DNA from: Candidatus Binatus sp.
Lineage (GTDB): Bacteria > Desulfobacterota > Binatia > Binatales > Binataceae
Direction: 5' to 3'
DNA: 64,000 bases
NCBI RefSeq assembly: GCF_050013435.1
Contig: NZ_JBEKFG010000004.1
Coordinates: 12,967 to 76,966, forward strand
Shown here: one piece after another, positions 13,558-63,294 of the stretch
How positions within the stretch are numbered: the first letter of the stretch is position 1
How the letters are laid out: each line of letters starts with the position of its first letter
Translations under genes and position numbers: made by a program
Notes under the pieces: generated by a model
What the model saw: the letters and a program-made list of their open reading frames with translations, nothing else
Told to the model about the DNA's origin: nothing
The model's database searches: none

Positions 13558-13574
13558 CGTTCAGCAACCAAACT

Positions 13575-43834: not shown

Positions 43835-43853
43835 GAATCGAAATGCGATGAAC

Positions 43854-45999: not shown

Positions 46000-46017
46000 T
46001 AAATAACAGAGCAATGA

Positions 46018-46328: not shown

Positions 46329-47513
46329 ATGCGCTCGTTGATGTCAGGTACACTAGTAGTGTTGCTGCTCGCGGCGCCGGCGTGGGTGCTGGGCGGCAGT
46401 TCGGAGGCGTCGGCGGCGTCGCCCGAGTTAGCGGCGGTCGCGCCCGGCATAACCTATCCTGTGCTCCCCACCGAGCTGACGCCGCCGACCTACGACTATG
46501 CGGCGCCCGAGACGTGCGCCGGTTGTCATTTTATAGAGGAAGGGAACTTACCTGGCCTCGACCACACTTCGCGTGTATTGGGCGTTTGGTTTGAGAGCGC
46601 TGCCGCTGTCAACGCTTCGTGTACGGCCGGTCCTACGACTTCGGGCGGGGTTACGACCCCCGGCGCTCCATTTGCGTGCTGTACAGGGAAAGGAGCAGGC
46701 ACTTGCTCGAGCATGTGGCAATTGACGGGCAGCGGATGGTTCGCCTCGCGGCACGCGCAGTCCGATTATGCCACGACCGAGAACGGGTTTTGCGCGAAGT
46801 GTCATTCGCCCCTTCAAGCTTACGCTCCCGCAAGCTTCAGCAATGGAGCCGTTGCCAATGCTCCCTCTGTTCCGCAGCAGCGATTCCAAGCTGTGACCTG
46901 TGCAACGTGTCATCCTCCGGATAACATCACCGCGCAGATCGGCGCGTTGAATCCAAGTGCTATGGACGGCGGGGCGGTCTCCATCTATCTCTGGAAGGGC
47001 TACAACAATCCCGCCTCCTATCAGACTCTGAGCACCGGAGTGAACTCCGACGGCACTTCGCAGGAAGACCTGCTATGCCTCAACTGCCATGAGCAGCGTC
47101 ACAACACCGACGATTCGGCCATGTGGGCTATGATGACGACCACCTACGGTCCTAACGGTGGTCCGGTCAGGTGCATCGATTGCCACATGTCGGAGTACCA
47201 GTTCATCGGTGGCGGCAGCACCGGCCTGCCGCTGCTCGAGGAAAGGTTTCACGACTGGAACGTTGGCGCGGACCTTCCTTACTCCTGCGGCGCGGTAGGA
47301 TCAGTGTCGGGATGTCATAACAGCACATATTCCACGTTCACTGTAGCCGACGCGCAGAACCTTATCCCGTTCATTAAAGAGCAGCACACCGATTGGTGGA
47401 CCCTGCCGCCGTTCAATGGAGTGGTACAGGCCGCAGTGCCGGCACACGGGGCGCCTACGCTCATTGAGTACAAGACACTAGAGCGAGAGATATCGAAAAT
47501 TGACGCCATGTGA
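46329..47513 (+). CDS. Secreted multiheme c-type cytochrome (5 CxxCH + one CX8CH)
   Basis: Signal peptide. CAGCH, CAKCH, CATCH, CLNCH, CIDCH, plus LPYSCGAVGSVSGCH (Cys-8 residues-Cys-His). Confidence 0.75.
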   Translation: MRSLMSGTLVVLLLAAPAWVLGGSSEASAASPELAAVAPGITYPVLPTELTPPTYDYAAPETCAGCHFIEEGNLPGLDHTSRVLGVWFESAAAVNASCTAGPTTSGGVTTPGAPFACCTGKGAGTCSSMWQLTGSGWFASRHAQSDYATTENGFCAKCHSPLQAYAPASFSNGAVANAPSVPQQRFQAVTCATCHPPDNITAQIGALNPSAMDGGAVSIYLWKGYNNPASYQTLSTGVNSDGTSQEDLLCLNCHEQRHNTDDSAMWAMMTTTYGPNGGPVRCIDCHMSEYQFIGGGSTGLPLLEERFHDWNVGADLPYSCGAVGSVSGCHNSTYSTFTVADAQNLIPFIKEQHTDWWTLPPFNGVVQAAVPAHGAPTLIEYKTLEREISKIDAM

Positions 47514-47526
47514 GCGCAGTAGGAAG

Positions 47527-49086
47527 ATGATGAATATCAACCCCGCCACATCGAGGCGACCGACGCAGCTACCCCCGGAGGCTTTTGTTCGTCCGGCTGG
47601 GCTCTACGGGCAGTTGCCAATCCCGAGACTGGCTCGGATCGCTGCGATTCTATGTGCGTTGATCCTCGCGTGGAATGCTCAGGGTTGGTGCGCCGGTCCC
47701 CTTCCCCTGAACCTGGACCGTCCCGACTATAATTACTCCGGCCTTACGTGTATGAGCTGCCACTTTAATGCTGCTGAGGGAAATCCCCTCCACACGTCGC
47801 GCGCCGCCGGTGTTACGTATAGCACCACCACGGGCATGTGGGAGCGAACCGGCCATGGCTGGTGGGATTCGCGGCACGCCCAGTCGCAGAACGGCTGGTC
47901 GAATCCGACGTCTACACTTGGCTGGGAACAGCCCAGCGGGACCTACGGCGAGAACGACAATACTTTCTGCGCCAACTGCCACTCGCCGCTTCAGGCCAGC
48001 GTGTACGGGGTCGCATCAATTTCGGAATCGGGCACCACGGCGACAGTGACGCTCTCGGCGCCAGGAATTCCGCTTGCGGACATCGCAGTCGGTGACACCA
48101 TATTCATCGCTGGCAACACCGTTGCTGGCTACAACAACGTTGAAACCACGGCGCCAGCCCCGGCCATAGGTGGATGGACGGTGACCGGTATCACGGATGA
48201 CCCCACCGACACCTTAGCGGCGACAATTACGTTCACAGGGCTTAGCCCTGGTGGTCTTGCGACCGGCACAGGCGGCACTCTCGGAGATACTACCAGGACG
48301 AGCGTGGTGTTCAGCGGCCAGGTGCAAAACCCGGTCACAGTTGTGAGCACTGCTACAGGTACGATCGCTGCAAGTGCTGTAGGCTTTACAGGCGTGTGGT
48401 GCAGTTCGTGCCATCCGAGCAGCAGCCTCGGCGCAGCGATTATTGCGCGATATCCCGGTGTTACTCTGGTATCGGGTGGCGTAACGGCTACGCTCGTCCG
48501 CGGCGCGAATCCGGCCCTGGCAGCCTCGTGGGTTCCGATACTCCCGGGTTTCGACCCTAATGGTGTTTCGTATGAAAGCGACTTCTGCCTGACCTGCCAC
48601 GAACAGGATCCGCATAACGCGGCGTCGAATTCGGTCTTTCAGGTAATGTACGCTTCGGGGGTCTCTTGTATCGATTGTCACATGGCACCATTTGCCATTA
48701 ATACCGGCACCACGGTCGATTCGTTCGGAACTCCGGCGGGGCTTACGGAGCGGTTCCATGACTGGAAGGTCGCCGAAAACTTACCGTACTCGTGCGGCGC
48801 ACAGGGTTCCCTAACTCAATACACCTGCCACTCGGGGTTCAACGCCGCCTCCGCTTTGGCTTATATCCCTTTCATGACCGGCCAACACAGCGCATGGTGG
48901 AGCCTGCCGCCGTTTTCGTCCTCCTCGGAAGCGGTATCAGCACATGAACTGAACGCGACCTCGGACCAGCTCGCGCTGTGGCGCGAGATACAGGCGGTTT
49001 ACGGAGCGAGCGGTAAAGATACCAACTATAAAGAAGCCAGCTATGAGGAAGGGGCCCGGCTGAAGGCCGTGGTCGCAAGGCCATGA
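47527..49086 (+). CDS. Secreted multiheme c-type cytochrome, paralog of 46329..47513 with about 130-aa insertion (5 CxxCH + one CX10CH)
   Basis: CMSCH, CANCH, CSSCH, CLTCH, CIDCH, plus LPYSCGAQGSLTQYTCH. Shares an ERFHDW.V...LPYSCGA block and a C-terminal 'HTDWWTLPPF'/'HSAWWSLPPF' block with its neighbour. Confidence 0.75.
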   Translation: MMNINPATSRRPTQLPPEAFVRPAGLYGQLPIPRLARIAAILCALILAWNAQGWCAGPLPLNLDRPDYNYSGLTCMSCHFNAAEGNPLHTSRAAGVTYSTTTGMWERTGHGWWDSRHAQSQNGWSNPTSTLGWEQPSGTYGENDNTFCANCHSPLQASVYGVASISESGTTATVTLSAPGIPLADIAVGDTIFIAGNTVAGYNNVETTAPAPAIGGWTVTGITDDPTDTLAATITFTGLSPGGLATGTGGTLGDTTRTSVVFSGQVQNPVTVVSTATGTIAASAVGFTGVWCSSCHPSSSLGAAIIARYPGVTLVSGGVTATLVRGANPALAASWVPILPGFDPNGVSYESDFCLTCHEQDPHNAASNSVFQVMYASGVSCIDCHMAPFAINTGTTVDSFGTPAGLTERFHDWKVAENLPYSCGAQGSLTQYTCHSGFNAASALAYIPFMTGQHSAWWSLPPFSSSSEAVSAHELNATSDQLALWREIQAVYGASGKDTNYKEASYEEGARLKAVVARP

Positions 49087-50336
49087 TGACTGGAGCATCG
49101 AAGCGAAGTAAGCGCAATCGGGCACCTGCCATGTGGTCGTTGTCGCTGTTGTTCTTTGGGCTGCTTGCGGTGCTGCCTGCGGCAGGCGCGCAAGCTGCCT
49201 CGAGCGACGAAGGCATGCTGCTTGCGGGAGGCCTGGATCAGCTCAATGGCCCGATGACCACCGCGGAGTATTACAACTTTAAGACGGCAGCCTTCTCCTG
49301 CAAGTTTTTAGGAGGAGTAAATGCTGCTGCCGGAGCGTGCAAGAACACTTTAGCGACGGGCCGTTTCTACGCGTCGGTGGCGCCGCTATCAAGCGGCGGG
49401 GTGTTGATTGCGGGCGGCAACAGCACCGGCGTGACCTGCCTCAACTCCGCGGAGATTTACAATCCGTCAACCGGCAGGTTTACTCCAACCGCTACCAGCA
49501 TGACTGACGCCCATTGTTTCGCGCATACCACCACCGTGCTGACGAATGGCTGGGTTCTAATCACCGGCGGAGAGGACACAACCGGAAACATCGTCAACAC
49601 CGCGGATATGTACAATCCGGCGACTGGGTTCACTTGCTCAACGCTTGGAGGAGTCTCGGCTACTACCGGCTACTGCACAAACACGATGACCGATGTCCGC
49701 TTCCTCGACACCGCAACGCTGTTAAAGAATGGCAGCGTGCTGATCGCGGGCGGTAACGATGGTTCGATCGTTAACACGGCGGAGCTTTTCAACCCCGTCG
49801 CGGGAACCTTCACTGCGACAGGGACGATGACCGACAGCCGCGAAAACCACACCGCCGCCCTGATCGTAACCGGGTCTAATTCAGGCGACGTGCTCATCGC
49901 CGGCGGTATCGACGCTGCGGGCAACGTGCTGCAAACTGCCGAGCTCTACAGTCCGACGGCCGGCACTTTTGCAGCAACCGGCACGATGACCCATCCCCGC
50001 TATCTGCATACCGCGACCCAGCTTAACACCGGGAAAATCCTGATCACCGGTGGCGAAGACGGAGCCGGTGCCGTGCTGGCGAGCGCCGAGGTATACGATC
50101 CTGTTTCCGCAACCTTCGCGTCGGTTAGCTCCATGACCACCGCTCGCGCGCTTCATACGGCTGTGCTGATTACCTCGGGACCCAAGAAGGGTTCTGTCCT
50201 GATCGCCGGCGGGATCGACAACAACGGCAATACACTCGGCACGGCTGAGTTGTACAATCCCAAAACCGGCAAGTTTACCGCGGCCGGTAGCATGGAACTG
50301 GGGCGCTCGTCGCAGGATGGTACGGCGCTGCCATAG
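49083..50336 (+). CDS. Secreted Kelch-repeat beta-propeller protein
   Basis: Signal peptide. Six or seven repeats of 'G.VLIAGG.D..G..L.TAELYNP.TG.FT..G.M...R..HTA.LL..G'. ATGA overlap with the upstream cytochrome. Confidence 0.7.
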   Translation: MMTGASKRSKRNRAPAMWSLSLLFFGLLAVLPAAGAQAASSDEGMLLAGGLDQLNGPMTTAEYYNFKTAAFSCKFLGGVNAAAGACKNTLATGRFYASVAPLSSGGVLIAGGNSTGVTCLNSAEIYNPSTGRFTPTATSMTDAHCFAHTTTVLTNGWVLITGGEDTTGNIVNTADMYNPATGFTCSTLGGVSATTGYCTNTMTDVRFLDTATLLKNGSVLIAGGNDGSIVNTAELFNPVAGTFTATGTMTDSRENHTAALIVTGSNSGDVLIAGGIDAAGNVLQTAELYSPTAGTFAATGTMTHPRYLHTATQLNTGKILITGGEDGAGAVLASAEVYDPVSATFASVSSMTTARALHTAVLITSGPKKGSVLIAGGIDNNGNTLGTAELYNPKTGKFTAAGSMELGRSSQDGTALP

Positions 50337-50351
50337 GGCGACGAGTGACCG

Positions 50352-51281
50352 ATGGCCGATTGTTCGCAATGTGAGACACCGTTCCCGATAGGCGCGAAGT
50401 TCTGCGCTGCGTGCGGCAATCGCGTCGATGCGGCTGGCGTGGACGAACTCCGGCGGCCAAGCGACAGCTGGCCTGGCCGTGGTGGCTTATCAGCTTCATG
50501 GATTGTCGCAGTCAGTGGCGCATTTTTGCTCGGCGGAGTCCTGACGTGGATGTTTATGCCTGCCGGGAAACACGACCGCTCGCAAGTCGCCATGCAGCCA
50601 ACTACCCAGGGACGTGCATCGACTTTGAACGGCCAGGTATCTGGCGTCATGCCGCCCGGACATTCGACGCCCTCCTTACCTTCTGGGCATCCGATGGCTG
50701 GTGGTCCGGCCCACGCCGCCGGCACGCTTATCGCCAAGGCGGAGAAACAGGCCAAGGCCAGTCCCAACGACATCGCAGCCTGGAACCGCCTCGGCGACGT
50801 GGCCTTCCGATCCGCGGTGTTCGACCCCGCGAATTATGACCACGCGCGTGAAGCGTTCACGCACGTGCTGGAACTCGACCCCGACAATCTCGACGCTCTG
50901 CGCGGGCTCGGAAACGTATGCTTCGATCAAAGACAACTCGACAAAGCGATCGCGGCGTACCAGCACTACCTGCGGCTTAAACCGAAAGACGCGCAGGTAC
51001 TAACCGATCTCGGCACGATGTATATGGCCCAGCAAAACTCGCACGAGGCGATCGCGCGCTACTCCGCGGCGCTCGCGCTGGCGCCGAGGTCCTTTCCAGC
51101 TCAGTTTAACCTTGGGGTGGCCTATCTGATGCTCAATGATAACCCCAATGCACGTGAGGCTTTGTCGCGCGCGCGCTCGCTTGCACCTGGAGACGCTGCT
51201 CGCACCAGGATCGATATGCTGTTGGCGCGAATAGATTCAAATGAAATGGCGAAGGGCACTGCTGCCAGCAAGTCGCGATGA
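50352..51281 (+). CDS. Zinc-ribbon / TM / TPR-repeat protein (CcmI/NrfG-like architecture)
   Basis: N-terminal CSQC..CAAC zinc ribbon. One TM helix. A periplasmic region with 4-5 TPR motifs (AWNRLGDVAF.., ALRGLGNVCF.., VLTDLGTMYM.., AQFNLGVAYL..). Confidence 0.6.
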   Translation: MADCSQCETPFPIGAKFCAACGNRVDAAGVDELRRPSDSWPGRGGLSASWIVAVSGAFLLGGVLTWMFMPAGKHDRSQVAMQPTTQGRASTLNGQVSGVMPPGHSTPSLPSGHPMAGGPAHAAGTLIAKAEKQAKASPNDIAAWNRLGDVAFRSAVFDPANYDHAREAFTHVLELDPDNLDALRGLGNVCFDQRQLDKAIAAYQHYLRLKPKDAQVLTDLGTMYMAQQNSHEAIARYSAALALAPRSFPAQFNLGVAYLMLNDNPNAREALSRARSLAPGDAARTRIDMLLARIDSNEMAKGTAASKSR

Positions 51282-51483
51282 AATTTCCCTCACGCTTCAG
51301 TGTGCCGAGTCAAAAGTGGCATCGCTGAACATTGGACCAGTTAAGAGAGCAATCAGGTTAACTTAGAGTAGCTAGAGGCGCCGATATAATTGTTGCCTAA
51401 TCCTCCCAACGGGATCATTAGGCTCGCTTAAGCCGTGTTCCAGTGGTCCGGTTGTTTTCCCCGTCAACACGGGGGAGAAGCAA

Positions 51484-54132
51484 ATGAACAAGTACGCAGG
51501 AAAAGTACGGATCGGCGTGATCGCGATCTTTTGTGGGCTCGCGTTTGCGATTGTCGGCCTTCATCGTTCTTCAGGCCGCGCCTATAGCGGGGTTCCCACC
51601 CCGACCCTACTGGTTTCGGACGTTTGCTCCTACGCCGTCACGGCTTACTCTGCCGCGAGCAACGGCGACGTCTCCCCGCTGATCCCCGTCCCTACCGGAC
51701 TTTCCGCACCGCAATTTGTGACCATTGACCCGAGTGGAAACATTTACGCCACCAACGCCTGCACCAACACCATCACCATTTACGCCGCGGGGAGCAAAGG
51801 CGACACCGGTCCCATCGCCATCATCGGCGGGCCCATGACCGGCCTGAGCGACCCAGCAGGCATCGCGCTGGATTCCAACCTCAACATCTATGTGGCGAAT
51901 GCAGGCGCCCCAGGCGTGTCTGTCTATCAGCCACTGGGAAGCAGCACCGGGCTGCTCAACGAGACCCCCATCGCCACCATCAGCGGGAGCAACACCGGCC
52001 TGCTCTACCCACAAGGCATCGCGGTGGATTCCAGTGGCAACATCTATGTGGCGGATGAAAGCGCCGCCAGCGTGTTTGTCTATCCGCCGCTGGCAAGCAG
52101 CACCGGGCTGCCCAACGAGAGCCCCATCGCCACCATCAGCGGGCTCGACACCGGCCTGAGCAGCCCCGAAGGCATCGCGCTGGATTCCAGCCTCAACATC
52201 TATGTGGCGGATGAAAGCGCCTCGAGTGTGTTTGTCTATCCGCCGCTGGCAAGCAGCAGCGGGCTGCCCAACGAGGCCCCCATCGCCACCATCAGCGGGA
52301 TCGATACCGGCCTGATCAGCCCATACGGCATCGCGTTGGATTCCACCACCGGCAAGATCTATGTGGCGGACGCGCTCGCCACCGGCGTGTTTGTCTATCC
52401 GGCGCTGGGAAAGAGCGTCGGACTGCCCGACGAGGTCCCCCTCGTCACCATCACCGGGAGCAAGACCGGCCTGAGCTACCCACAAGGCATCGCGCTGGAT
52501 TCCAGCGACGACATTTATGTGGCGGACACCAGCAGCGTGTTTGTCTATTCGGCGGGGAGTAAGGGCAATGCCGCTCCCAGTTCGGCCACCATCAGCACGA
52601 CCATGACCACCGGCCTGGGATGGCCACAAGGCATCGCGCTGGATTCCAGCGGCAAAATCTATATGGCGGATGACGGACCTGGAGCCAATGGCCCCGGCAG
52701 CGTGTTTGTCTATCCGGCCGGGAGCAAGGCCAATGCCGCTCCCACCGCCACCATCAGCGGGACCAACACCGGCCTGAGCTACCCACAAGGCGTCGCGCTG
52801 GATTCCAGCAAAAATATATATGTGGCGGACGAAGGCGCCGTCAGCGTGTTTGTCTATTCGGCGGGGAGCAATGGCAACGTCGCCCCCACCACCATCATTA
52901 GCGGGAGCAACACCGAGTTGGACACCCCGGAAGGCATCGTGGTGGATCCCAGCCTCAACATCTACGTGGCCGACGACGGTGACGGATCTTGCGATGGCAC
53001 CGAGAGTTTGTATGTCTATACGGCCGGGAGCATCGGCAATGCCGCCCCTGGCGCCACCATCAGTGGTGGCAACACCGGTCTGTGCTACCCGTACGGCATC
53101 GCGCTGGATTCCAACCTCAACATCTATGTGGCGGACGAGGGCGCCGCCAGCGTGTTTGTCTATCCTCCCTTGGCCAGCCTCCCCAGCCAGCCCAATTATC
53201 CCAACGTGACTCCCATCGCCACCATCAGCGGGAACAACACCGGCCTGAGCGGTCCGTACGGCATCGCGTTGGATTCCAGCGGCAACATCTATGTGTCGGA
53301 CTATTCCGCCAACGGCGTGCTTACCTATCCGGCGCTGGGAAGCAGCACCGGGCTGCTCAACGAGCCCCCCACCGCCACCATAAGCGGTCCGCTCACAGAA
53401 CTGGGGGAGCCTCAGTTCATCGCCGTCCAGCCGGCTGCCGCGCCGACACCGACGGCAACGGCGACTACCACGCCGACTGTGACGGCCACTCCAACCGCGG
53501 TGGCGACGACCTCGATATCGGTACCGAAGAAGCTGGACGTGGGCAAATCGACGCTGGGCAACACGGTGTCCAAGAACCTCGACGTGAAGAACACGGGGAA
53601 GGCGGACTTGTTCATCAACAGCGTATCCTCATCCGACCCTGAGTTCGTCCCCGGCGCCTCGACCTGTCCGGCGGGCGGGCTTGCGCCCAAGGGCAAGTGC
53701 ACGATCGCGATCGGATTCACGCCGACCGTGCTTGGCGCGGGTAGCGCGACGCTCACGCTCGACGATAACGCGGGCACGGGCACGCAGAACGTGGCGCTGT
53801 CGGGGACGGGGGAGCCCGATGTGACGGTATCGCCCGACAGCATCGCTTACGGCAAGGTGAAGTTGAGCGCAAAGAAAAGCAAGACGGTGAAGGTGAAGAA
53901 CGAGCAGCCGGTGGCGGTGACGCTGAGCCAGATCATCACCGGGACCGACGCGAGCTACTTCACGGTGACGGGCGGGACGTGCAGCGGCACGCTGGCGGCC
54001 AAGGCGAAATGCACCTACATCGTGACGTTCACGCCGGTGCTCGGCGTCGAGCGCACGGCGACGCTCAGTGTCACGGCGAGCCCCGACCTGCTAAGCCCGC
54101 ACAATGTGAGTCTAGCCGGCACCGGCTCATAG
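51484..54132 (+). CDS. Secreted NHL-repeat beta-propeller protein with Thr/Pro linker and C-terminal Ig-like (choice-of-anchor-D-type) domains
   Basis: SD GGGGAGAAG. TM/signal anchor. At least 12 repeats of 'P.GIALDSS.NIYVADE.A.SVFVYP' and an AAAPTPTATATTTPTVTATPTAVATT linker. Three LSGTG-bounded domains as in 1064..4810. Confidence 0.75.
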   Translation: MNKYAGKVRIGVIAIFCGLAFAIVGLHRSSGRAYSGVPTPTLLVSDVCSYAVTAYSAASNGDVSPLIPVPTGLSAPQFVTIDPSGNIYATNACTNTITIYAAGSKGDTGPIAIIGGPMTGLSDPAGIALDSNLNIYVANAGAPGVSVYQPLGSSTGLLNETPIATISGSNTGLLYPQGIAVDSSGNIYVADESAASVFVYPPLASSTGLPNESPIATISGLDTGLSSPEGIALDSSLNIYVADESASSVFVYPPLASSSGLPNEAPIATISGIDTGLISPYGIALDSTTGKIYVADALATGVFVYPALGKSVGLPDEVPLVTITGSKTGLSYPQGIALDSSDDIYVADTSSVFVYSAGSKGNAAPSSATISTTMTTGLGWPQGIALDSSGKIYMADDGPGANGPGSVFVYPAGSKANAAPTATISGTNTGLSYPQGVALDSSKNIYVADEGAVSVFVYSAGSNGNVAPTTIISGSNTELDTPEGIVVDPSLNIYVADDGDGSCDGTESLYVYTAGSIGNAAPGATISGGNTGLCYPYGIALDSNLNIYVADEGAASVFVYPPLASLPSQPNYPNVTPIATISGNNTGLSGPYGIALDSSGNIYVSDYSANGVLTYPALGSSTGLLNEPPTATISGPLTELGEPQFIAVQPAAAPTPTATATTTPTVTATPTAVATTSISVPKKLDVGKSTLGNTVSKNLDVKNTGKADLFINSVSSSDPEFVPGASTCPAGGLAPKGKCTIAIGFTPTVLGAGSATLTLDDNAGTGTQNVALSGTGEPDVTVSPDSIAYGKVKLSAKKSKTVKVKNEQPVAVTLSQIITGTDASYFTVTGGTCSGTLAAKAKCTYIVTFTPVLGVERTATLSVTASPDLLSPHNVSLAGTGS

Positions 54133-54621
54133 GCGGTGCGATCGGGCGCGAACGATCCCGCCGCAATAGAACGAAACGCCCGTCCGGCCATCGTGGCATG
54201 GCATTGGCGAGAACGATATTGGCGATGATCAGCTCGCGCCATGGTCGGCGGCGTCGGCGAATCATGGTATCGTCGCCTAATCAATGTCCCTCGGCAACGC
54301 CGCCCGGACTTCATTCAGAGGAATGGCGCCGACATGACGAGGGATATCGACGGGTGTCCCTCCTCAAAACCTCATCGGGGGCGATGATGCTGTCGTGGAC
54401 ATTGTCCGCGCCAAAAGTTCCATCCGAACACGAGACGGCCGGAAAGCGCTATCGACGATTGCTCACGGCGCCGGAAGTTCGAATCTTGCCCTTTACACTC
54501 GCCTTTGAAGGTGCCGCGCGGAACAGAGCCGCGGCTGGAAAAATCTTGCAACGGGGGGGGCGGTTTGGACTACAAAGCGACTTAAAATGCGAGCGTAAAA
54601 TGCGGCCGGGAGAATTGGGGC

Positions 54622-54637
54622 CGGTATAAAAATTGCT
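54622..54637 (+). promoter_or_regulatory. Candidate sigma-54 (-24/-12) promoter for the mtrAB-like operon
   Basis: cGGTAT-AAAAA-TTGCT. Identical architecture and flanking ATAAAAATTGCTTA as at 45984. Confidence 0.4.
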
Positions 54638-54656
54638 TACTTGGCAGGCTGACGTC

Positions 54657-54860
54657 TTTAGAAATATTAATGAGAGGGCATTTTCCCAAGGGTCACAAGG
54701 CCGCCACGGAAGGGTCCTAAAGCTGAATGGTTCTTCCGGATACGATCGCGTTGTCTTTTGGACACAGTTGTCCTGTCTTGGGGGCGATGTGTAACCGACG
54801 GCGGTAAGCCGCTAGAGGGCGCGTTTGCCGACGGCGGACGCCCGAAATGGAGACGGCAAT
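54657..54860 (+). promoter_or_regulatory. Conserved 5' leader, second copy (see 46018..46328)
   Basis: Aligns to 46018..46223. Here the conserved GGAGACGGCAATATGGA ends exactly at the decaheme cytochrome start codon. Confidence 0.5.
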
Positions 54861-55883
54861 ATGGAGGAGGAACGCAGCTCGCGAAAGTTTTGGGCAGGTC
54901 TTTTGGTGGCACTGGTCGCGGTTGGAATCGCCTTCGTGTTTTCATCGCCCCCCGCAATCGGCGCGGAAGGCACCCTGCTTTCCCAAGCCGCGGGATCGGG
55001 GACGACGCTGCCGCCCGGCTACGTCCATAATGACACCTGCGTCAGTTGCCATGATGTGCAGGTCAAGGCCTTCCGCAACACGATGATGGGCCATCTTATG
55101 CTGGGCCGGCCGCGCGACGACCGAGAAAGCCTCGCGTGCCAGGCCTGTCATGGTCCCGGCCGCGAGCACTTACGCCATCCGAGCAAGCCGTCGCCGGGAT
55201 TTGTGAGCTTTCGCGAGACCTCCTTCAAGGACATCAAGGTTGAGAACGAGCGGTGCCTCGAATGCCATCAAAACGGCGAGCGCGGCTTCTGGCGGGCCAG
55301 CACCCACGCCGAGCGCGGCATTCGATGCGTCGATTGTCACGCCGTGATGTGTCCGGTGACGGCGAGCGCGCTGCCGCAGGCGCAACTCAAGAAGTCGCCG
55401 CTTGGCACGGAGTTCGTCAATCCATTCATCGTGACGCGCCCCGAAACCCAGGTTTGCCTGCGCTGCCATCTCGACAAAAAGATGGAGATCAATCTGCCGT
55501 CGCACATGCCGCTGCGCGAGGGATTGATGACGTGCACCGACTGCCACAACCCACATGGCGGGCCGTATCAGAAGCAATTGCGGGCGGCGATGGTCAATGA
55601 GGTCTGCTACCGCTGCCATGCCGAGAAGCGCGGGCCGTTCCTGTGGATGCATGCGCCGGTGGCGATGAACTGCATCAATTGCCATGTCCCGCACGGCAGC
55701 GTGAATCAGCACATGCTGGTGATCAACATGCCGGTGCTGTGCCAGCGCTGCCACATCGGAACTAGTCATACGAGTCAACCTCATAGGAGAGGTCAAATTT
55801 TCGTGATCAACCAGCAATGCGCCAATTGCCATTCACAGATACACGGCTCGAACTCGCCGGGCGGGAGATATTTCACGCGTTGA
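54861..55883 (+). CDS. Periplasmic decaheme c-type cytochrome, MtrA/PioA/MtoA/DmsE family
   Basis: Start MEEERSSRKFWAGLLVALVAV (signal anchor). Ten CxxCH motifs in about 340 aa, several as CxxCHxPHG. Directly followed by an MtrB/PioB-type barrel gene. Confidence 0.75.
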   Translation: MEEERSSRKFWAGLLVALVAVGIAFVFSSPPAIGAEGTLLSQAAGSGTTLPPGYVHNDTCVSCHDVQVKAFRNTMMGHLMLGRPRDDRESLACQACHGPGREHLRHPSKPSPGFVSFRETSFKDIKVENERCLECHQNGERGFWRASTHAERGIRCVDCHAVMCPVTASALPQAQLKKSPLGTEFVNPFIVTRPETQVCLRCHLDKKMEINLPSHMPLREGLMTCTDCHNPHGGPYQKQLRAAMVNEVCYRCHAEKRGPFLWMHAPVAMNCINCHVPHGSVNQHMLVINMPVLCQRCHIGTSHTSQPHRRGQIFVINQQCANCHSQIHGSNSPGGRYFTR

Positions 55884-55954
55884 AGCGGGAGGCACAGGAA
55901 AGCACGGCATCGCTGGGCCGCACCGCGTTTTGCAACCGGCCCGGGAGGAAAGTC

Positions 55955-58210
55955 ATGAACCTCAAGCGGTTGTTAGCCGGATGTGGAACGATGGCGCTCG
56001 TGTTGTCGATGGTCTCGCCGGCACTGGCACAGGTCGATGTCGGGAAATACACGGTGCAGGGATCGGTCGAGGCGGGCGCCATCCCCCAGCCCGTCCCCTA
56101 TGACGACTCCGCGGCGAAGTATCAGGAGTACCGCGATCTGGCGCAGCAGTTCATCGTGCCGAAACTCCAGTTGATCCTGGGCGACAAGGCGGAGAACTAC
56201 TACGTGCAGTTCGACGCGGTTAACGTCGCACAAAAGAACCAGATGTATTCGCTGCGCTTCGGCGAGTACGGCCTGCTCGATGTTCAGGCAAAATTCTTCG
56301 AGATTCCACACGCCTTCAGCGACGGCGTCGCGAGCACGCCATACGACGAAAACGGCGGCAGCTTCACGCTATCCTCGAAGCCCACTGGTACCGGCACCGC
56401 CCTCCAATCCTGGCTGGCAGCGAACGACAAACCGTTCGACATGAGCCTGCTCGAAGGTGTCGCGGACATCAACGTGCGCTATACGCCCACGCCGTCGCTG
56501 AGCTTCAGCGCGAACCTGGATTATCAGAACCCCACCGGCCAACAGCCATTCGGTGGCAGCTTCATGTTTGGCGCCAATCCGGGCAGTTACAAAGTGAACG
56601 AACTCTGGGCGCCAATTCAGTACTACATCTATAACTTCGGCACCGGCATGGAATACGCGAAAAACGGATGGCTGGTGGGGTTCCAGTACCAGGGATCCTT
56701 CTTCGTCGACGACTACAGCACCCTGACCTGGGACAACCCGCTCAATACCAGCGGAGTAGGCGGCAATTGCGTGGATTCCACCGTCTTCAGTTCCACGTCG
56801 CTTACCGGCCCATGCGAGGGACGGGCAGCGATGTATCCGAACAACCAGGCTCACAACTTCATCGTGAATGGAGCGGGTCAGCTTCCATTCAACACGCACG
56901 TGATGGGCAGCCTCGAGTACGGATTCTGGCTCCAGAACTCTCCCTTCATCCCGCTTACGAGCAACAGCACGCTGAAGCAGTCATTAAGTTCGGTCGGGGC
57001 GCCCAATAGCCTCGGCGGCGACGTGCAACCTTTCTTCGCCAACTTCACGATCGACAGCAATCCGATCGAGCCGCTGGACATCAAGGCGGTCTATACCTAT
57101 TTCGATTACGACAACCTGACGCCGGGGGTCACCTTCAAAGGCGTTAAGTCGCTCAATGACATCTCGGACCCGCAGATGCCTTTCAGCGCTTATCCCTTTT
57201 CATTTTCGGAGCAGGACGTCAGCCTCGAGCCAACCTACCACGTGACTGATACTATAGCCGCGCACTTTACTATGAAGTGGCAGACCAACCACAACGAGGG
57301 GCTGGAGGTGCTGCAGCAGGATCAGCTCAGCTATGGGCCTGCGCTCGATTGGAACCCATATCCGTGGCTGACTTTCCGGGCGGATTACCAGCACGCGCAC
57401 CGCGACTCGCCGGGATACAACAACAACCGCGCCGACCTAGTCGAGATCCTTGGCGGGATCCCGGGAGGGATCGCGGAGGTTCAGGACCTGCGGCGGTTCG
57501 ACGAGGCCACGGTCGATGTGAACCAGACTTCGCTCTATGCCTCCGTGCAGCCGATCGAAAACGTCAGCCTGTTCAGCTCCTTCAGCTACGACGACTATAA
57601 CTACCCCTCGACCGACTTCGGCCTGCAGCATACGTCGAGCTACACGCCGTCGGTGGGGGGCAGTTACGATCCGCTTCCGACCCTGCATTTTTTCGGCGAC
57701 TACGCATGGCAAGCGTACGATTGGAACCTAAGGTCGCTTTACGGGGGTACCGGCGTAAAGCCGGGTGTGCCGGGAAAATCGTGGGTTTGGACGGCGGATG
57801 GCCGCAACCAGGGCAACAATTTCGATCTCGGGATGGACGTCGCGATACCGCAGAATCATATCCTGAAGCGGCCGTCGCACCTGAAAATCCAGTACACCTA
57901 TACGGTTGGCAGCAACCTCACCCACCAATCGGGCGCTACGGCGGCCGGTTCGGCGTCGGAGGCGATCGACTATCCAAATGCCGGCACCCAGATGGAAGAG
58001 TTGATGGTTCAGTACGAGTACGATTTGCGCGACAACCTCGCGATCAACATCGGGTACTACTTCAACAATTTCGGCGAACACAATTACATGGTGGACCAGA
58101 TGGCGAACTACATGCCCGGCGCCAGCAAAAACTCGACATTTCTCGGCAACTCCGACATGTCCCCCTACAACGCCAATGTCGGATTCATAACTCTTAAATA
58201 CAAATTTTAA
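55955..58210 (+). CDS. MtrB/PioB-family outer-membrane beta-barrel (porin component of porin-cytochrome conduit)
   Basis: SD GGAGGA. Signal peptide MNLKRLLAGCGTMALVLSMVSPALA. About 750 aa, rich in alternating aromatic beta-strand pattern. C-terminal ..GFITLKYKF ends in the aromatic residue typical of OMPs. Position after the decaheme gene. Confidence 0.7.
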   Translation: MNLKRLLAGCGTMALVLSMVSPALAQVDVGKYTVQGSVEAGAIPQPVPYDDSAAKYQEYRDLAQQFIVPKLQLILGDKAENYYVQFDAVNVAQKNQMYSLRFGEYGLLDVQAKFFEIPHAFSDGVASTPYDENGGSFTLSSKPTGTGTALQSWLAANDKPFDMSLLEGVADINVRYTPTPSLSFSANLDYQNPTGQQPFGGSFMFGANPGSYKVNELWAPIQYYIYNFGTGMEYAKNGWLVGFQYQGSFFVDDYSTLTWDNPLNTSGVGGNCVDSTVFSSTSLTGPCEGRAAMYPNNQAHNFIVNGAGQLPFNTHVMGSLEYGFWLQNSPFIPLTSNSTLKQSLSSVGAPNSLGGDVQPFFANFTIDSNPIEPLDIKAVYTYFDYDNLTPGVTFKGVKSLNDISDPQMPFSAYPFSFSEQDVSLEPTYHVTDTIAAHFTMKWQTNHNEGLEVLQQDQLSYGPALDWNPYPWLTFRADYQHAHRDSPGYNNNRADLVEILGGIPGGIAEVQDLRRFDEATVDVNQTSLYASVQPIENVSLFSSFSYDDYNYPSTDFGLQHTSSYTPSVGGSYDPLPTLHFFGDYAWQAYDWNLRSLYGGTGVKPGVPGKSWVWTADGRNQGNNFDLGMDVAIPQNHILKRPSHLKIQYTYTVGSNLTHQSGATAAGSASEAIDYPNAGTQMEELMVQYEYDLRDNLAINIGYYFNNFGEHNYMVDQMANYMPGASKNSTFLGNSDMSPYNANVGFITLKYKF

Positions 58211-58331
58211 GCCGAGGCTATTGGAGTACGAGCAGCAAGAGTCCGGGACAAACAACGAATGACCTATCTTCCGCCGCGGCCCGGCCCGCAAATCAAACGG
58301 CGGAAAAGGAATGGAAGGAAGGAGAGAAGAC

Positions 58332-58745
58332 ATGACCGAGAGTTTGACAACCAAGGGTCGATCGAGAGTGTGGATTTGGACCGCGACGGTTATACCGGCG
58401 GTTGCAGCGCTGGCGTTGATCTCAACCGCCGCCCGCGCAGCCGATCTCACGTCCGCGGCCAGCAGCTACACGGATACGTGCGCCAAGTGCCACGGCCCGG
58501 CCGGCAAGGGCGACGGTCCCAAAGCGGCCGAGCTGAAAGACAAGGACGGCAAACCGGTCGCCATCGGAGATTTGTCCGATTGCGCCAAGATGAGCAAGGT
58601 TACCGATGACGACTTGTTCAAGGAGCTGAAAGAGGGCGGCGCGTCGGTGGGCAAGAGCAAGTTCATGACGCCCTATGGCGATGCGATGGAGGATGACGAG
58701 ATCAAGGCGATGGTTGCGTACGTCAGAACCTTGTGCAAGAAGTAG
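58332..58745 (+). CDS. Periplasmic monoheme class-I cytochrome c (MtoD-like position)
   Basis: SD GGAAGGAAGGAG. Signal peptide. Single CAKCHG heme site. Met-containing C-terminal half (KFMTPYGDAMEDDEIKAMVAYV). Confidence 0.75.
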   Translation: MTESLTTKGRSRVWIWTATVIPAVAALALISTAARAADLTSAASSYTDTCAKCHGPAGKGDGPKAAELKDKDGKPVAIGDLSDCAKMSKVTDDDLFKELKEGGASVGKSKFMTPYGDAMEDDEIKAMVAYVRTLCKK

Positions 58746-58774
58746 CGGCGCGCACCACGTCGGCAATCGGCCAT

Positions 58775-58880
58775 CCCAATACGGGCACTCAGTTCCATGG
58801 GTTGATGTTTTAGTATGTGTACGATTTTGCGCGATAACGTCGCGATCAACGTCGGCTACTACTTCAGCAAGTTTAGATAA
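58775..58880 (+). pseudogene. Remnant of a second mtrB-like gene 3' end
   Basis: Aligns to mtrB 57966..58210 with internal deletions (..ACGATTTTGCGCGATAACGTCGCGATCAACGTCGGCTACTACTTCAGCAAGTTTAGATAA against ..ACGATTTGCGCGACAACCTCGCGATCAACATCGGGTACTACTTC..AAATACAAATTTTAA). Confidence 0.55.
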
Positions 58881-58910
58881 CCCGCTTTCACCGAAGGAAG
58901 GAGATAAGCC

Positions 58911-59324
58911 ATGTCGAAGAGTTTGAGCAGTAAAATTCGATCGAGTCTGTGGATTTGCACCGCGTCGGCCATACCGGCGGTTGCAGCACTGGCGTTGTTC
59001 TCAACCACCGCCCGCGCAGCCGATCTCACGTCCGCGGCCAGCAGTTATACGGATACGTGCGCCAAGTGCCACGGTGCGGCCGGCAAGGGCGACGGCCCTA
59101 AAGCGGCCGAACTGAAAGACGCGGCCGGCAAGCTGGTCGCCATCGGAGATTTGTCCGATTGCGCCACGATGGCCAAGGTTACTGACGACGACATGTTCAA
59201 GGAGCTGAAAGAGGGCGGCGTGTCGGTGGGCAAGAGCAAGTTCATGACGCCCTATGGCGATGCGATGGAGGACGACGAGATCAAGGCGATGGTTGCGTAC
59301 GTCAGAACCTTGTGCAAGAAGTAG
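58911..59324 (+). CDS. Periplasmic monoheme class-I cytochrome c, tandem duplicate of 58332..58745
   Basis: About 90% identical protein with the same CAKCHG site and its own strong SD (GAAGGAAGGAG). Confidence 0.75.
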   Translation: MSKSLSSKIRSSLWICTASAIPAVAALALFSTTARAADLTSAASSYTDTCAKCHGAAGKGDGPKAAELKDAAGKLVAIGDLSDCATMAKVTDDDMFKELKEGGVSVGKSKFMTPYGDAMEDDEIKAMVAYVRTLCKK

Positions 59325-59612
59325 CGACGCGCGTCAAGCTCGAGTATGAGTCCAGGCGCGCGGGATTGAGGGCGAGCAGACTTAGGCAGCCGCCGGCTTG
59401 TAGTTGGCCGGCGGCCTTGCGCAGCAGTTGTACTGGCATTCCCTCTGACCACCCAAAGCAGCCGAGTGAATGCCCTCGCACGGGTAACCGACTAGATCTC
59501 ACCAGAGAGCGACTCACGGCAAGCGGGTCCGATCCCAGGGATCGGACCGCTTGCCGCTCGGAAACCGGGCGTCGCTTCCCTATATTCAAAAAAGAAGCAA
59601 CGCAGGTGGAAT

Positions 59613-61145
59613 ATGCAAACGAGCGGAGATGAGCCGGGCGCGCCGGAAGTGGAGCGCCCGGAGGGGCAAAATGGCGGCGCAGCCGAACGCCAATTGCCAA
59701 GTTTGGCTCGCAATCGGCTGAGTATCGCTGGTCTGATCATTGCCGTCATCATCCTGGCGGACATGCTTTCCCTGGCCGGCATGACGATGCTGGGGGTGCA
59801 GCTGAACCCCTACGTCGGCATTTTTGCCTACCTGATCGGTCCGGCCGTCATGATAGTAGGCCTGTTGCTCATTCCGGCCGGCATGCTGATCGAACGTCGA
59901 CGGCGCCGGAGATTTTTGCCCGGTGAGCTGCCGCCCTTTCCCAAGCTCGATCTCAACCAGCCTTCGGTTCGGCGCGGCTTTCTCGGCGCGGTCGGCTTTG
60001 CGTTCTTTTTCGTGGCTCTCAGCATGGTGGCGAGCTACCAGGGCTACCAGTTCACGGACTCGGTGATGTTCTGCGGGCAGACCTGTCACGTCCCGATGAA
60101 GCCGGAATTCGACGCCTACCAGGATTCGCCGCACGCGCGGGTCGCATGCGCGGGCTGCCACGTGGGACCCGGCGCCACCTGGTTTGTTCGCTCCAAGCTG
60201 TCGGGCGCCTATCAGGTCTATGCGGTAATGTTCAACAAGTACCCCAGACCTATCGAAACTCCGATCAAGGAGTTGCGCCCGATTCGCGCTGCCTGCGAGC
60301 AATGCCATTGGCCACAGAAGTTCTACGGCGCGCAACTCAAGGTCTTCCCGCATTATGGATACGACGAGAAGAACACTCCCATGCGTATCCAGATGCTGAT
60401 CAAGACCGGAGGAGGAACTGCCGAATTCGGCCACGCCACCGGAATTCACTGGCACATGAACATCGCCAACGAAGTATGGTTCGCGGCTACTGACAAGCAG
60501 TCCCAGGTGATTCCGTGGGTAAAAGTGAGGACGCCTGACGGAAGGACCACGGAATACCTTGCCAAGGGCAGTACGCTGACCCCAAAGCAGATCGAAGCGA
60601 TGCCCATCCAGCAGATGGACTGCGTGAGCTGCCATGCCCGCCCGTCGCATAAGTTCCTTCCGCCCGATCAGGCGGTCGATGCGTCGTTCGAGGCGGGTCA
60701 GCTAGACCCTTCGCTGCCCTTCCTGAAGAGGCAGGCGGTCAAGGCCCTGATTAAGCACTACAGCACGTCGGAGGAGGCGGCCGAGGGAATCGCAACCTCC
60801 CTCGATACCTTTTACCGCAATCGCTATTCCGAGATTTATACCGTGAAGTGGCCGCAAATCCGCGCTGCCATCGCCGCCGTGCAGCAGATCTACAAAAAGA
60901 ACATGTTTCCTTTCATGCACGTTGACTGGCGCACTCATCCCGACAACATCGGCCACCTCTATTACCCGGGATGTTTCCGCTGTCACGATGGGCAGCACGT
61001 CAGCTCTGATGGCCGGGTGATACCGCAGGATTGCGATACCTGTCACTCGGTCCTTGCAACTCCTACAAGTGTCGCCCAGTTCAAGCATCCAGTTGATGTG
61101 GGCGACACGACTTGCAGCGCCTGTCATACAGGAGGCGTGCTGTAA
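59613..61145 (+). CDS. Inner-membrane heptaheme c-type cytochrome, ImcH-like (NapC/NirT-related quinol dehydrogenase)
   Basis: Two or three N-terminal TM helices. Seven CxxCH (CGQTCH, CAGCH, CEQCH, CVSCH, CFRCH, CDTCH, CSACH). Length (510 aa) and layout match Geobacter ImcH-type proteins. Confidence 0.5.
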   Translation: MQTSGDEPGAPEVERPEGQNGGAAERQLPSLARNRLSIAGLIIAVIILADMLSLAGMTMLGVQLNPYVGIFAYLIGPAVMIVGLLLIPAGMLIERRRRRRFLPGELPPFPKLDLNQPSVRRGFLGAVGFAFFFVALSMVASYQGYQFTDSVMFCGQTCHVPMKPEFDAYQDSPHARVACAGCHVGPGATWFVRSKLSGAYQVYAVMFNKYPRPIETPIKELRPIRAACEQCHWPQKFYGAQLKVFPHYGYDEKNTPMRIQMLIKTGGGTAEFGHATGIHWHMNIANEVWFAATDKQSQVIPWVKVRTPDGRTTEYLAKGSTLTPKQIEAMPIQQMDCVSCHARPSHKFLPPDQAVDASFEAGQLDPSLPFLKRQAVKALIKHYSTSEEAAEGIATSLDTFYRNRYSEIYTVKWPQIRAAIAAVQQIYKKNMFPFMHVDWRTHPDNIGHLYYPGCFRCHDGQHVSSDGRVIPQDCDTCHSVLATPTSVAQFKHPVDVGDTTCSACHTGGVL

Positions 61146-61172
61146 GCGAATCGGCGCGGACGAGAGAGACAA

Positions 61173-62474
61173 ATGGCGCACGGATCAAGACGGATGGTTA
61201 GCGGCTTTGGGCGCATCGCGTGCGCTGTTGCGGCAATGCTGCTGTGTGCGGTCGCGATGGGCCATGCCGCAGCGACGACCAAGGCCGCTGCGACCGAGGG
61301 CGCTGCGACGACCAAGGCCGCTGCGGCCAAGGTGCTCACCGATAAGGATTGCCTGGGATGCCATAATCTGAAGGCCAGCGCCAAGTTGCAGGCGCGGGTG
61401 GTTAGCGTCTACGTCAATGCGGAGATTTACCAGCCCTCGGTCCATTCGAAGGTAGGTTGTGTCGCCTGCCATTCTGACATCCATGCCTTTCCACATCCCG
61501 ATTCGGTCAAGCCGGTTTCATGCGCCGGCTGCCACGCGAGCGAGACTTCGGGGTATGCGGGCAGCGTTCATGCAATCGCCGAGCGGGAGAAGAAGAGCCG
61601 CTTTCCGGCCTGTCTCAACTGTCACGGCAACCCCCACGGCATCCTGGCCAAGACTGACCCGAAGTCGCGAGTCTATCCGCTCAACCTGCCGCGCACCTGT
61701 GGCACCTGCCACGGAAATCCCGAGCTTGCCAAGAAATATGGCTTTCCGGATGTGTACGCGTTGTACATGGATTCGATTCACGGCTTCGCCCTGACCTCCG
61801 ACGGGCTGTTGGTGGCGGCAACCTGCGCCAGTTGCCATGGGGCGCACGATATCCTGAGCAGAAAGGACCCGAAGAGCCGGACCTTCCCTAAAAATGTGCC
61901 CGCCACCTGTGGCGGGTGCCATGCCGGCGTCCAAGTCGACTACCTTGCCGGAGCGCACGGCCAGGCGATGACCGCCGGGCGCGCGAATGCTCCGGTATGC
62001 ACCAATTGCCATACCGCGCATCAGATTGCCCAGGTGGACGTCGTGAACTGGCAACTCAAAACCGTCGCCACCTGCGGCAACTGTCACAAGACGAGGCTTA
62101 AGAGCTACCGCGATACTTTCCACGGCCAGGTGACCGAACTCGGTTTCGTCGCCACGGCACGATGCTGGAGTTGCCATGGCTCTCACCTGATTCTGAAGGC
62201 TTCCGATCCGAAGTCCAAGGTCGCGCCGGCCAACCTCCCAACCACGTGCGGCAAGTGCCACGCCGGCGCAACCGCGAGTTTTGTCAGCTACGAGCCACAT
62301 CCCAATGTGCACGACCGGCGGCAGAACCCGGCTTTATATTACGCGGCCCTCTTCATGAACCTGCTGCTGGTGGGGGTTTTCCTCTTCTTCGGCCTGCACA
62401 CAGCGCTATGGCTTGCGCGGTCGCTGGGGAACGGGTCGCGGGGGAAGGGCAATGGAGTGAGCGGTGAACAGTAA
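61173..62474 (+). CDS. 11-heme c-type cytochrome with C-terminal TM anchor (Cbc/CbcL-type periplasmic subunit)
   Basis: Signal peptide. Eleven CxxCH, many as CxxCHxxH/CxxCHGxPHG. C-terminal hydrophobic helix LYYAALFMNLLLVGVFLFFGL. Overlaps the downstream b-type cytochrome gene by 11 nt. Confidence 0.7.
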   Translation: MAHGSRRMVSGFGRIACAVAAMLLCAVAMGHAAATTKAAATEGAATTKAAAAKVLTDKDCLGCHNLKASAKLQARVVSVYVNAEIYQPSVHSKVGCVACHSDIHAFPHPDSVKPVSCAGCHASETSGYAGSVHAIAEREKKSRFPACLNCHGNPHGILAKTDPKSRVYPLNLPRTCGTCHGNPELAKKYGFPDVYALYMDSIHGFALTSDGLLVAATCASCHGAHDILSRKDPKSRTFPKNVPATCGGCHAGVQVDYLAGAHGQAMTAGRANAPVCTNCHTAHQIAQVDVVNWQLKTVATCGNCHKTRLKSYRDTFHGQVTELGFVATARCWSCHGSHLILKASDPKSKVAPANLPTTCGKCHAGATASFVSYEPHPNVHDRRQNPALYYAALFMNLLLVGVFLFFGLHTALWLARSLGNGSRGKGNGVSGEQ

Positions 62475-63294
62475 CGATTCAGAACAATATTATTTTCGCT
62501 TCTCGCTGGGGCAGCGCTACCTGCACGGCTTGGTGATCACAACCTTTTTGGGTCTTGCCGCCACCGGAATGACCCTGCGGTTCAGCGAACGGGGTTGGGC
62601 AAAGTCACTGGCGGAAATCGCCGGCGGATTCACTGCGATCCTATCTCTGCATAAGTTCTGCGCGGTGCTTATATCAGCCGGCTTTCTCTACCATATTGGA
62701 GAGCTCTTCTATCGGGCGATGATAAAGAAGGAGCGGGGCCTTTTTTTGGGGCCATACTCGATGACTCCGCAGCCCAAGGATGCCGTGGACCTCTTTGAGA
62801 TGCTGCGCTGGTTCCTTTGGATGGGTCCGCAGCCCAAATTCGACCATTTTGCCTACTGGGAGAAGTTCGACTATTGGGCGGTGTTCTGGGGAATGGCGAT
62901 TATCGGCGCCACCGGCTACATGATGTGGTTCGGACCTTTCTTTGCCCGCTTCGTGCCCGGCTACCTACTCAATATCGCGCTCCTGATTCACGGTGAGGAA
63001 GCTCTGCTGGCCGTCTGGTTCATCTTCATTATCCACTTTTTTAATTCCCACCTGCGCCCTGAGAAGTTTCCGCTCGACCCTGTGATATTTACCGGCCGCG
63101 TCAGCGGTGGAGACTACCAGCACGAGCGCCCGCTGGATTATTCGCGGCTTGGCGAGTCCGGCGCCCTGGAAGCGTTGCGCAGTGACCCGCCTCCCCTTTG
63201 GCTCAAGAATTTCTCCCGCTTGATCGCGATTGTTGCGGTCGGCATCGGCTTTGCGTTGCTCGCGCTTACCTGGATCGCCTTTTGGACCGAGTAG
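62464..63294 (+). CDS. Membrane di-heme b-type cytochrome (HydC/FdnI/cytochrome b561-like) partner of the 11-heme cytochrome
   Basis: Five TM helices. RYLHG motif in helix 1 and conserved His in later helices (LIHGEE, IHFFNSH), consistent with the PF01292-type fold. Confidence 0.55.

Follow-up and report, generated by a model that had tools for sequence, protein, structure and literature searches.

Paralogous modules of a sigma-54-type promoter element and a long leader ahead of two cytochrome operons in an uncultured Binataceae bacterium

Introduction

Among described cytochrome regulators, the one closest to the locus treated here is BccR of Geobacter sulfurreducens, a regulator with REC, sigma-54-interaction and HTH domains that is encoded beside the cytochrome operon cbcBA and is required for its induction (bioRxiv 10.1101/2021.04.15.440034). 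Our locus lies in a stretch of 64,000 nucleotides from the peat bacterium Candidatus Binatus sp. (Binataceae; RefSeq assembly GCF_050013435.1, contig NZ_JBEKFG010000004.1, positions 12,967 to 76,966 of the forward strand; hereafter the window), in which two copies of a module, each with a −24/−12 element of sigma-54 type and a long leader, precede one operon of cytochrome genes and a second that opens with an mtrAB-like pair. We propose, with a probability that we put at roughly 0.65, that sigma-54 polymerase would act at both −24/−12 elements and that the adjacent two-component system would open both, co-inducing the cytochrome operons.

The two systems are alike in that a REC/sigma-54/HTH regulator stands by a cytochrome operon with a −24/−12 promoter, cbcBA serving extracellular electron transfer. 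They differ in arrangement and in target. Whereas bccR is divergent from cbcBA, the window's regulator gene is co-oriented with its putative targets and has its own kinase gene beside it; whereas cbcBA encodes an inner-membrane bc cytochrome, the candidate targets in the window are an outer-membrane pair of porin and cytochrome as well as further multihaem cytochromes. Furthermore, the window has two copies of the predicted promoter and a long leader. Compared with RpoN promoters generally, the window's elements share the GG/GC spacing and TTGCT at −12 but carry GGYAT in place of GGCAC.

Three further systems bear on the comparison. GEMM-I riboswitches, which sense cyclic dinucleotides, precede cytochrome genes in Geobacter and thus resemble the module in placing a long conserved 5′ leader before genes of extracellular electron transfer, but the window's leader has no Rfam match and neither a thermodynamic nor a covariation signal of a fold. 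In Pseudomonas aeruginosa, the enhancer sites of FleQ lie downstream of the RpoN site, an arrangement to which we return below. Finally, like the MtrAB, PioAB and MtoAB systems, the window pairs the gene for a DmsE-family decahaem cytochrome with that for an MtrB/PioB porin, although it has no gene for an MtrC-type outer cytochrome directly beside them; the examples of these systems known to us are under CRP- or FixK-type regulators and not under sigma-54. A literature search on the regulation of porin-cytochrome genes in Binatia found nothing.

Two copies of one module

The two copies, of about 375 bases each, are found at window positions 45854-46226 (copy A) and 54499-54865 (copy B), 8,638 nucleotides apart. 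Each is composed of an upstream element of about 120 nucleotides, a −24/−12 motif and a long leader, the last divided here into a first part (M1) and a second part (M2):

45854..45981, + strand: upstream element of copy A, a candidate enhancer region; its own GG..GC pair has a non-canonical spacing of 10
45985..45999, + strand: −24/−12 element of copy A, GGCATAAAAATTGCT; 10/13 of YTGGCACG-N4-TTGCW
46010..46328, + strand: leader A; M1 at 46010-46146, decayed M2 at 46147-46226, native cytochrome upstream sequence at about 46275-46328
54499..54620, + strand: upstream element of copy B, with conserved blocks ATCTTGCA and GTTTGGACTACA and its own motif CTGGAAAAATCTTGCA
54623..54637, + strand: −24/−12 element of copy B, GGTATAAAAATTGCT; 9/13 of the same consensus; predicted transcription start near 54648
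54648..54786, + strand: first part (M1) of leader B; AT-rich box at 54657-54691, direct repeats spaced by 22 nucleotides, dyad GGACAcagtTGTCC at 54760-54773
54787..54860, + strand: second part (M2) of leader B; hairpin P5 at 54800-54813, P6 with an inner stem at 54817-54843, Shine-Dalgarno (SD) sequence GGAGA at 54849-54853

A repeat search of the window returned the copies as a two-copy direct repeat (45944-46133 and 54582-54771, spacing 8638 nucleotides). Aligned with MAFFT, 45860-46226 and 54506-54865 are identical in 77% of columns, and a profile built from both copies re-finds each of them at E = 1e-123. The 17-mer TTAGAAATATTAATGAG, expected 0.01 times in the window, is present only at 46020 and 54658, within both leaders, and the similarity between the copies stops five bases inside the mtrA reading frame (ATGGA). 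An earlier note on this DNA had described a second sigma-54-type promoter with a conserved leader before the mtrAB-like operon, some 8.6 kb from its partner and with a different operon downstream. The paralogy, the measured spacing and the presence of GG-N10-GC in both copies bear this out: copy A precedes genes for cytochromes and for Kelch, TPR and NHL proteins, copy B precedes mtrA-mtrB. Within the span that the note assigned to the second copy, 54610-54870, the motif and leader stand as placed, but the left border has to be moved, since homology starts about 110-125 nucleotides further upstream, at about 54499. The module does not match a mobile repeat of the kind of miniature inverted-repeat transposable elements or repetitive extragenic palindromes, there being only two copies in the 64 kb, both within the cytochrome cluster; no terminal inverted repeats of the module were found.

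The −24/−12 element across the Binataceae

Upstream regions of relatives (loci designated by L and a number) were collected by exact-protein look-ups, by a protein-based scan of species-representative genomes and by a DNA-pattern scan of metagenomes, the last of which gave 19 loci, 13 of them true copies and 6 chance matches in AT-rich DNA. The distinct Binataceae modules number 23, of which 18 are full-length and five are partial or distant (L052, L039, L038, L018a and L011).

Both window copies have the canonical GG-N10-GC arrangement (GG 54623-24 and GC 54635-36 in copy B; GG 45985-86 and GC 45997-98 in copy A), and they score 10/13 (A) and 9/13 (B) against the consensus; their −24 half reads GGYAT, not GGCAC, and TTGCT stands at −12. 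The RpoN consensus is mrNrYTGGCACG-N4-TTGCWNNw and its Geobacter version TTGGCACGGTTTTTGCT, and Geobacter RpoN promoters verified by primer extension match 9-11 of the 13 consensus positions (PMC2725144). In the window, GGYAT-N5-TTGCW has four matches against 0.35 expected, a number that none of 100 shuffles reached. Across the relatives, GG and TGC are invariant and the GG/GC spacing is kept in 23/23 distinct modules, in the form GG[CT]AT-N6-TGCT with a variable spacer, and this invariance holds in the distant L011, L052 and L018a despite their diverged flanks. In L011, whose mtrA has 72% protein identity and a four-fold-site identity of 0.63 to that of the window, the 15-mer is identical at 14/15 positions while its flanks are unalignable. 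Canonical spacing is also seen in a third sigma-54-like motif, GGCATAAGAGTTGCT, at window positions 883-897; it is situated on the + strand between genes, about 130-180 nucleotides upstream of an open reading frame (1016-4810) for a 1264-residue NHL-repeat protein.

A regulator fit for such promoters is encoded directly upstream:

42089..43834, + strand: sensor histidine kinase; HisKA and HATPase_c (Pfam), AtoS/ZraS-like core (NCBIfam)
43848..45272, + strand: NtrC-family sigma-54 enhancer-binding response regulator; REC, AAA+ with GAFTGA, HTH_8
45361..45576, + strand: tatA/E-family gene between the activator gene and copy A; PF02416, 61 bits

With its HisKA and HATPase_c domains beside a REC, AAA+ and HTH_8 regulator, the pair is a two-component system of NtrC type. 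The activator matches PF00158 (Sigma54_activat) at 229 bits and GAFTGA can be read in its translation; its best NCBIfam matches are AtoC, NtrC and ZraR, all under their equivalog cut-offs. Its ATG is at 43848 and not, as first noted, at 43854. The translated kinase has no CXXCH motifs and no obvious membrane segment. In other genomes, the kinase orthologues upstream of the module are 83-95% identical; activator orthologues are 95-99% identical across related loci and tatA is 90-98% identical in 12 loci. CsrA was considered for the 71-residue product of the gene beside the activator and rejected, since the protein is TatA (PF02416).

On every contig that reaches far enough, the first module is immediately preceded by the kinase, activator and tatA genes; these loci come from different samples (the window, L015, L016, L017, L020, L025, L036, L040, L043, L044, L045 and L050); the short L034 has tatA alone upstream of the module. 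In single-module genomes the module stands between tatA and mtrA. L049-L051 carry other cytochrome genes after mtrB with no module before them, and L052 has the promoter and the first part of the leader before a small cytochrome c gene. L053 has no leader, but 69 nucleotides upstream of its mtrA stands TGGCACGCGTAATGCT, which agrees with the consensus at 12/13 positions; the background for such a score is 0.0009 per 500 nucleotides, or 0.09 matches expected in the whole L053 locus. Weaker sites with canonical spacing are found in L055 and L013. Together with the modules, these sites indicate that sigma-54 control of mtrAB recurs in the clade, with or without the leader. About 140-190 nucleotides upstream of TGGCACGCGTAATGCT, L053 also holds leader-like pieces (2300-2345), namely ACACAGTTG and GCATCCAAAG, the reverse complement of CTTTGGATGC; these matches, of a length expected by chance, are only a lead for an activator site.

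Co-regulation of both cytochrome sets by the adjacent sigma-54 activator, which the earlier note had favored as the simplest model, finds support in the spacing and invariance of the motif, the GAFTGA-bearing activator, the kept gene order and the L053 promoter. In the mechanism that we envisage, sigma-54 RNA polymerase would be bound as a closed complex at GG (54623) and GC (54635), the kinase (42089-43834) would phosphorylate the NtrC-type activator (43848-45272), and the AAA+ ring of the activator would open both promoters, with predicted transcription starts near 54648 and 46010. Opening of both by one activator would turn both cytochrome sets on together.

Evidence against sigma-54 control and the sigma-70 alternative

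Several observations weigh against sigma-54 control of the two operons. In these loci, matches of at least 9/13 that include GG and GC occur at 0.36 per 500 nucleotides of one strand, and the general consensus with up to three mismatches is not enriched in the window; a match of 9-10/13 is therefore at background frequency and the score alone proves nothing. No RpoN box, and hence no rpoN gene, turned up in the window or the loci fetched from relatives. Copy B holds a sigma-70-like TTGGCA-16-AATATT at 54641-54668 (9/12). The upstream element is poorly conserved, with 25% invariant columns in seven genomes and 25-40% over both comparisons made, and the modules of L052, L038 and L011 lack it; moreover, no motif in the upstream element or the leader could be tied to the activator. 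The leader is lost or rearranged in L053, L008 and L056/L018b. Where it is retained in the seven genomes, 65% of its columns are invariant, as against 69% at the four-fold degenerate sites of mtrA, and because it is no better kept than these sites, conservation among relatives this close cannot prove function. Finally, the stretch from the NHL gene to copy B yielded no terminator, and read-through from copy A is thus possible.

The sigma-70-like match raises the question of whether the promoters are of sigma-70 type and GG-N10-GC a coincidence, the true elements being TTGGCA-16-AATATT in copy B or TTGCAN-17-TACAAN in the upstream element. B-type relatives do have TTGGCA or TTGACA at the same place as the match in copy B, and in most copies 17 nucleotides separate CTTGCA from TACAA, the two blocks of the upstream element that are kept best. 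Nevertheless, we consider a sigma-70 promoter improbable. Copy A has no sigma-70-like site, and A-type copies and L011 retain GG and TGC but not the −35 candidate; in the −10 candidates, either the key T at position 6 or the A at position 2 is missing. A sigma-54-only activator is encoded next door in every genome whose contig extends that far, and L053 provides an independent, near-consensus sigma-54 promoter.

Conservation of the module

Alternatively, only the −24/−12 element may matter, and the rest of the roughly 375 shared nucleotides could be a passive by-product of recent rearrangement among close relatives. The four-fold-site comparison above is what such a history would leave, and in the closest set of genomes the spacer matches the leader in conservation (88% vs 85%). 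The leader has been lost in L053, cut by an IS110-family-like remnant in L008 and partly inverted in L056/L018b, and M2 decays in copy A. Against this stands the set of L016, L017 and L043, where the promoter is 82% and the leader 74% invariant while tatA and the module are separated by a spacer of only 23-31% invariant columns, 31% being the figure to set beside that of the leader. The promoter and the first ~135 nucleotides persist in four junction variants; promoter and M1 are kept before three different genes and in three truncated forms, and every truncation stops 3′ of M1, the M2 hairpin part being lost or decayed away from mtrA. L011, with its four-fold identity of just 0.63, still aligns in blocks. 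M2 on its own exceeds the four-fold sites of the seven genomes, with 83% vs 69% invariant columns (p = 0.03). The four-fold-site control undercut conservation as a proof of function and the spacer control partly rescued that argument; we give a passive origin of the flanking sequence about the same modest probability as the DNA-level sites considered below. Pointing the other way from the spacer control, the 288 nucleotides that separate the second small cytochrome c gene from that for the 510-residue cytochrome (59325-59612) are 68% invariant in the same seven genomes, on a par with the leader.

Two of the rearranged loci can be described further. By eye, L008 (9560-9740) has a remnant resembling an IS110-family transposase in place of the promoter and the leader's first half; the L008 mtrA downstream is 82% identical to that of the window. 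In L056 (550-650) and L018 (9790-9900), the leader part TCGCATTGCCTTTTGGATACAG is inverted, with loss of the −12 element; the rearrangement seems fixed and is not an obvious invertible switch.

The leader: RNA element or DNA sites

Leader B runs for about 213 nucleotides up to the SD sequence and ATG (54861) of mtrA. Copy A retains a vestigial mtrA SD sequence and ATG (46222) in its M2, and the native sequence that follows belongs to the gene for a 394-residue cytochrome; an open reading frame of 39 codons at 46222-46341 has no Pfam match and is absent from other copy-A variants. M1 carries direct repeats spaced by 22 nucleotides (AAGGGTC... and CTTYYGGAYAC; 54686-54795 and 46095-46127 in the window, 9806-9882 in L020) as well as GGACA/TGTCC dyads; Tandem Repeats Finder reported no tandem repeats in the leader. 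In L018 (1500-1600), just downstream of the −24/−12 element, the AT-rich box AGAAATATTNATGA is triplicated locally. Comparison of the AT-rich box by eye with the Fur, FNR and ArcA consensus sequences gave no convincing match.

The leader is non-coding. The reading frame ATGAGAGGG was rejected as a leader peptide because its start is lost in L043 and L045, codon 17 is a stop in copy B and frameshifts interrupt it in L020, L016 and L017. A second frame (ATGATGG..., 29 codons) stays open; indels of 2 and 19 nucleotides occur in it, however, and its codon positions 1 and 2 change as often as position 3.

Such a leader could act as RNA, that is, as a new cis-regulatory 5′ untranslated region that tunes translation or stability of the cytochrome mRNA, either riboswitch-like or acted on by an RNA-binding protein or a small RNA, with the type of promoter secondary. 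The retention of some 213 non-coding nucleotides between paralogues and across species would suit this, as would better conservation than in the neighboring spacer, the insertion of a variable extra hairpin in some copies and the precedent of GEMM-I riboswitches before Geobacter cytochrome genes. The two hairpins adjoining the SD sequence, P5 and P6, are 87.5% paired, compared with 30-44% for slid partners, and four of their pairs have changed on both sides, although their covariation is marginal (27/500 shuffles). In L016 (13895-13977) and L017 (13885-13964), a copy of the hairpin segment lies between tandem small cytochrome c genes and shows two compensatory changes (GAGUGC...GCACUC).

The tests of structure speak against an RNA element. 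With Rfam 15 neither copy has a match even at E ≤ 10, the only match in the window above a gathering threshold being a tRNA at 29291. Folding energies show no excess stability over shuffles (z = −0.67 for B, +0.41 for A), and the RNAalifold consensus reaches just −8.8 kcal/mol with a covariation term of −0.58 and consists mostly of an invariant CCAAAA/UUUUGG. Hand-built helices for M1, the first ~135 nucleotides, are 84% paired but were rejected, as about 495/500 shuffles covary as much. GGA motifs, which would be expected of a CsrA target, appear no commoner than expected (a hand count against a rough estimate). The leader is also dispensable in L053 and L055. We think it unlikely that the leader acts as RNA.

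M1 fits DNA sites better than an RNA fold, given its sequence retention, the lack of an RNA-structure signal, the 22-nucleotide repeats and the GGACA/TGTCC dyads; that promoter and M1 always occur together likewise hints at sites acting at the DNA level. Tentatively, M1 may hold a bending site and activator or repressor boxes, together serving as a downstream enhancer or operator. An enhancer placed downstream as for FleQ would explain why about 135 bp downstream of the promoter, and not the upstream element, accompany it, though for M1 this is only a lead. With similar reserve, M1 (54648-54786 and 46010-46146) might be a new regulatory unit of Binataceae electron-transfer operons, either a mirror-image sigma-54 architecture, in which bending site and activator boxes stand downstream of the promoter, or a new leader RNA whose sequence is specifically recognized by a protein.

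The upstream element

The upstream element lies at a suitable distance for activator sites but, as noted, is poorly kept and lacking in some modules. Repeated boxes are found downstream of the promoter. Its own motif CTGGAAAAATCTTGCA (54536, 87 nucleotides upstream of the −24/−12 element) was considered as a sigma-54 site; its GG..GC spacing varies (copy B, 11; copy A, 10; L020, 9) and is canonical in none of them, and the motif was therefore rejected as a promoter in the lineage of the window. Similarly, a match to the IHF consensus, AATCAGGAAGTTA (45934-45946), was discarded as a feature of the module, because it occurs only in a 14-nucleotide insertion, between the upstream element and the −24 element, that is specific to A-type copies. 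Around the mtr genes of L022, the upstream element (about 115 nucleotides) is present without the leader four times within 12 kb (1826-1933, 3711-3800, 7831-7935 and 13457-13563), and L056 has a copy at 435-550. Unlike in the window, the element's own GG..GC is canonical in three of the four L022 copies and in L056 (CCGGCTGGAACCTTGCA, 10/13).

History of the locus

The ancestral order may have been kinase-activator-tatA-module-mtrAB. In the lineage of the window, another cytochrome operon would then have been placed between the module and mtrAB, with duplication of the module. Copy A ends in the SD sequence and ATGGA of mtrA and its variants are cut at different points, which argues that the mtrA-side module represents the original junction and that copy A arose during the rearrangement of the operons.

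Genes downstream of the two copies

46329..54132, + strand: operon A; two multihaem cytochromes followed by Kelch, TPR and NHL-repeat proteins
54861..55883, + strand: mtrA, DmsE/MtrA-family decahaem cytochrome; TIGR03508, 229 bits against a cut-off of 192, and Pfam
55817..58210, + strand: mtrB, MtrB/PioB-family outer-membrane porin; PF11854, 231 bits against a cut-off of 23
58259..63294, + strand: rest of operon B; two tandem small c-type cytochromes, multihaem cytochromes of 510 and 433 residues, cytochrome b561-like protein

A DmsE-family decahaem cytochrome thus adjoins an MtrB/PioB porin, as in MtrAB and PioAB pairs. The mtrA gene call is identical on 9 public contigs; the mtrB product scores 186 bits with TIGR03509, under the cut-off of 240. 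The small c-type cytochrome genes are a tandem duplication (58314-58613 and 58893-59192, 87% identical). Elsewhere in the window, dispersed short repeats (GTCATCCTGAGCGAAGCGAAGGA) and palindromic GCAGGGCTGAGCCCTGC units form two clusters about 10-12 kb apart (25661-25719, 27070-27128, 37239-37297, 39131-39189 and neighbors).

Significance

Overall, the locus is a case of sigma-54 and two-component control of cytochrome genes, of a known kind, newly seen in an uncultured phylum and for a porin-cytochrome system. Because Geobacter uses the same kind of control for cbcBA, specialists will not be surprised by it; the interest would be greater should the leader that travels with the promoter turn out to be an enhancer placed downstream or an RNA element of a new kind. 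The Binataceae are uncultured and common in peat and soil, and the MtrAB-type genes that they carry point to redox chemistry of iron or humic substances. A two-component, sigma-54 switch with two target promoters amounts to a concrete proposed regulon that takes in both cytochrome operons, and this regulon offers a testable handle on when Binataceae turn on extracellular electron transfer.

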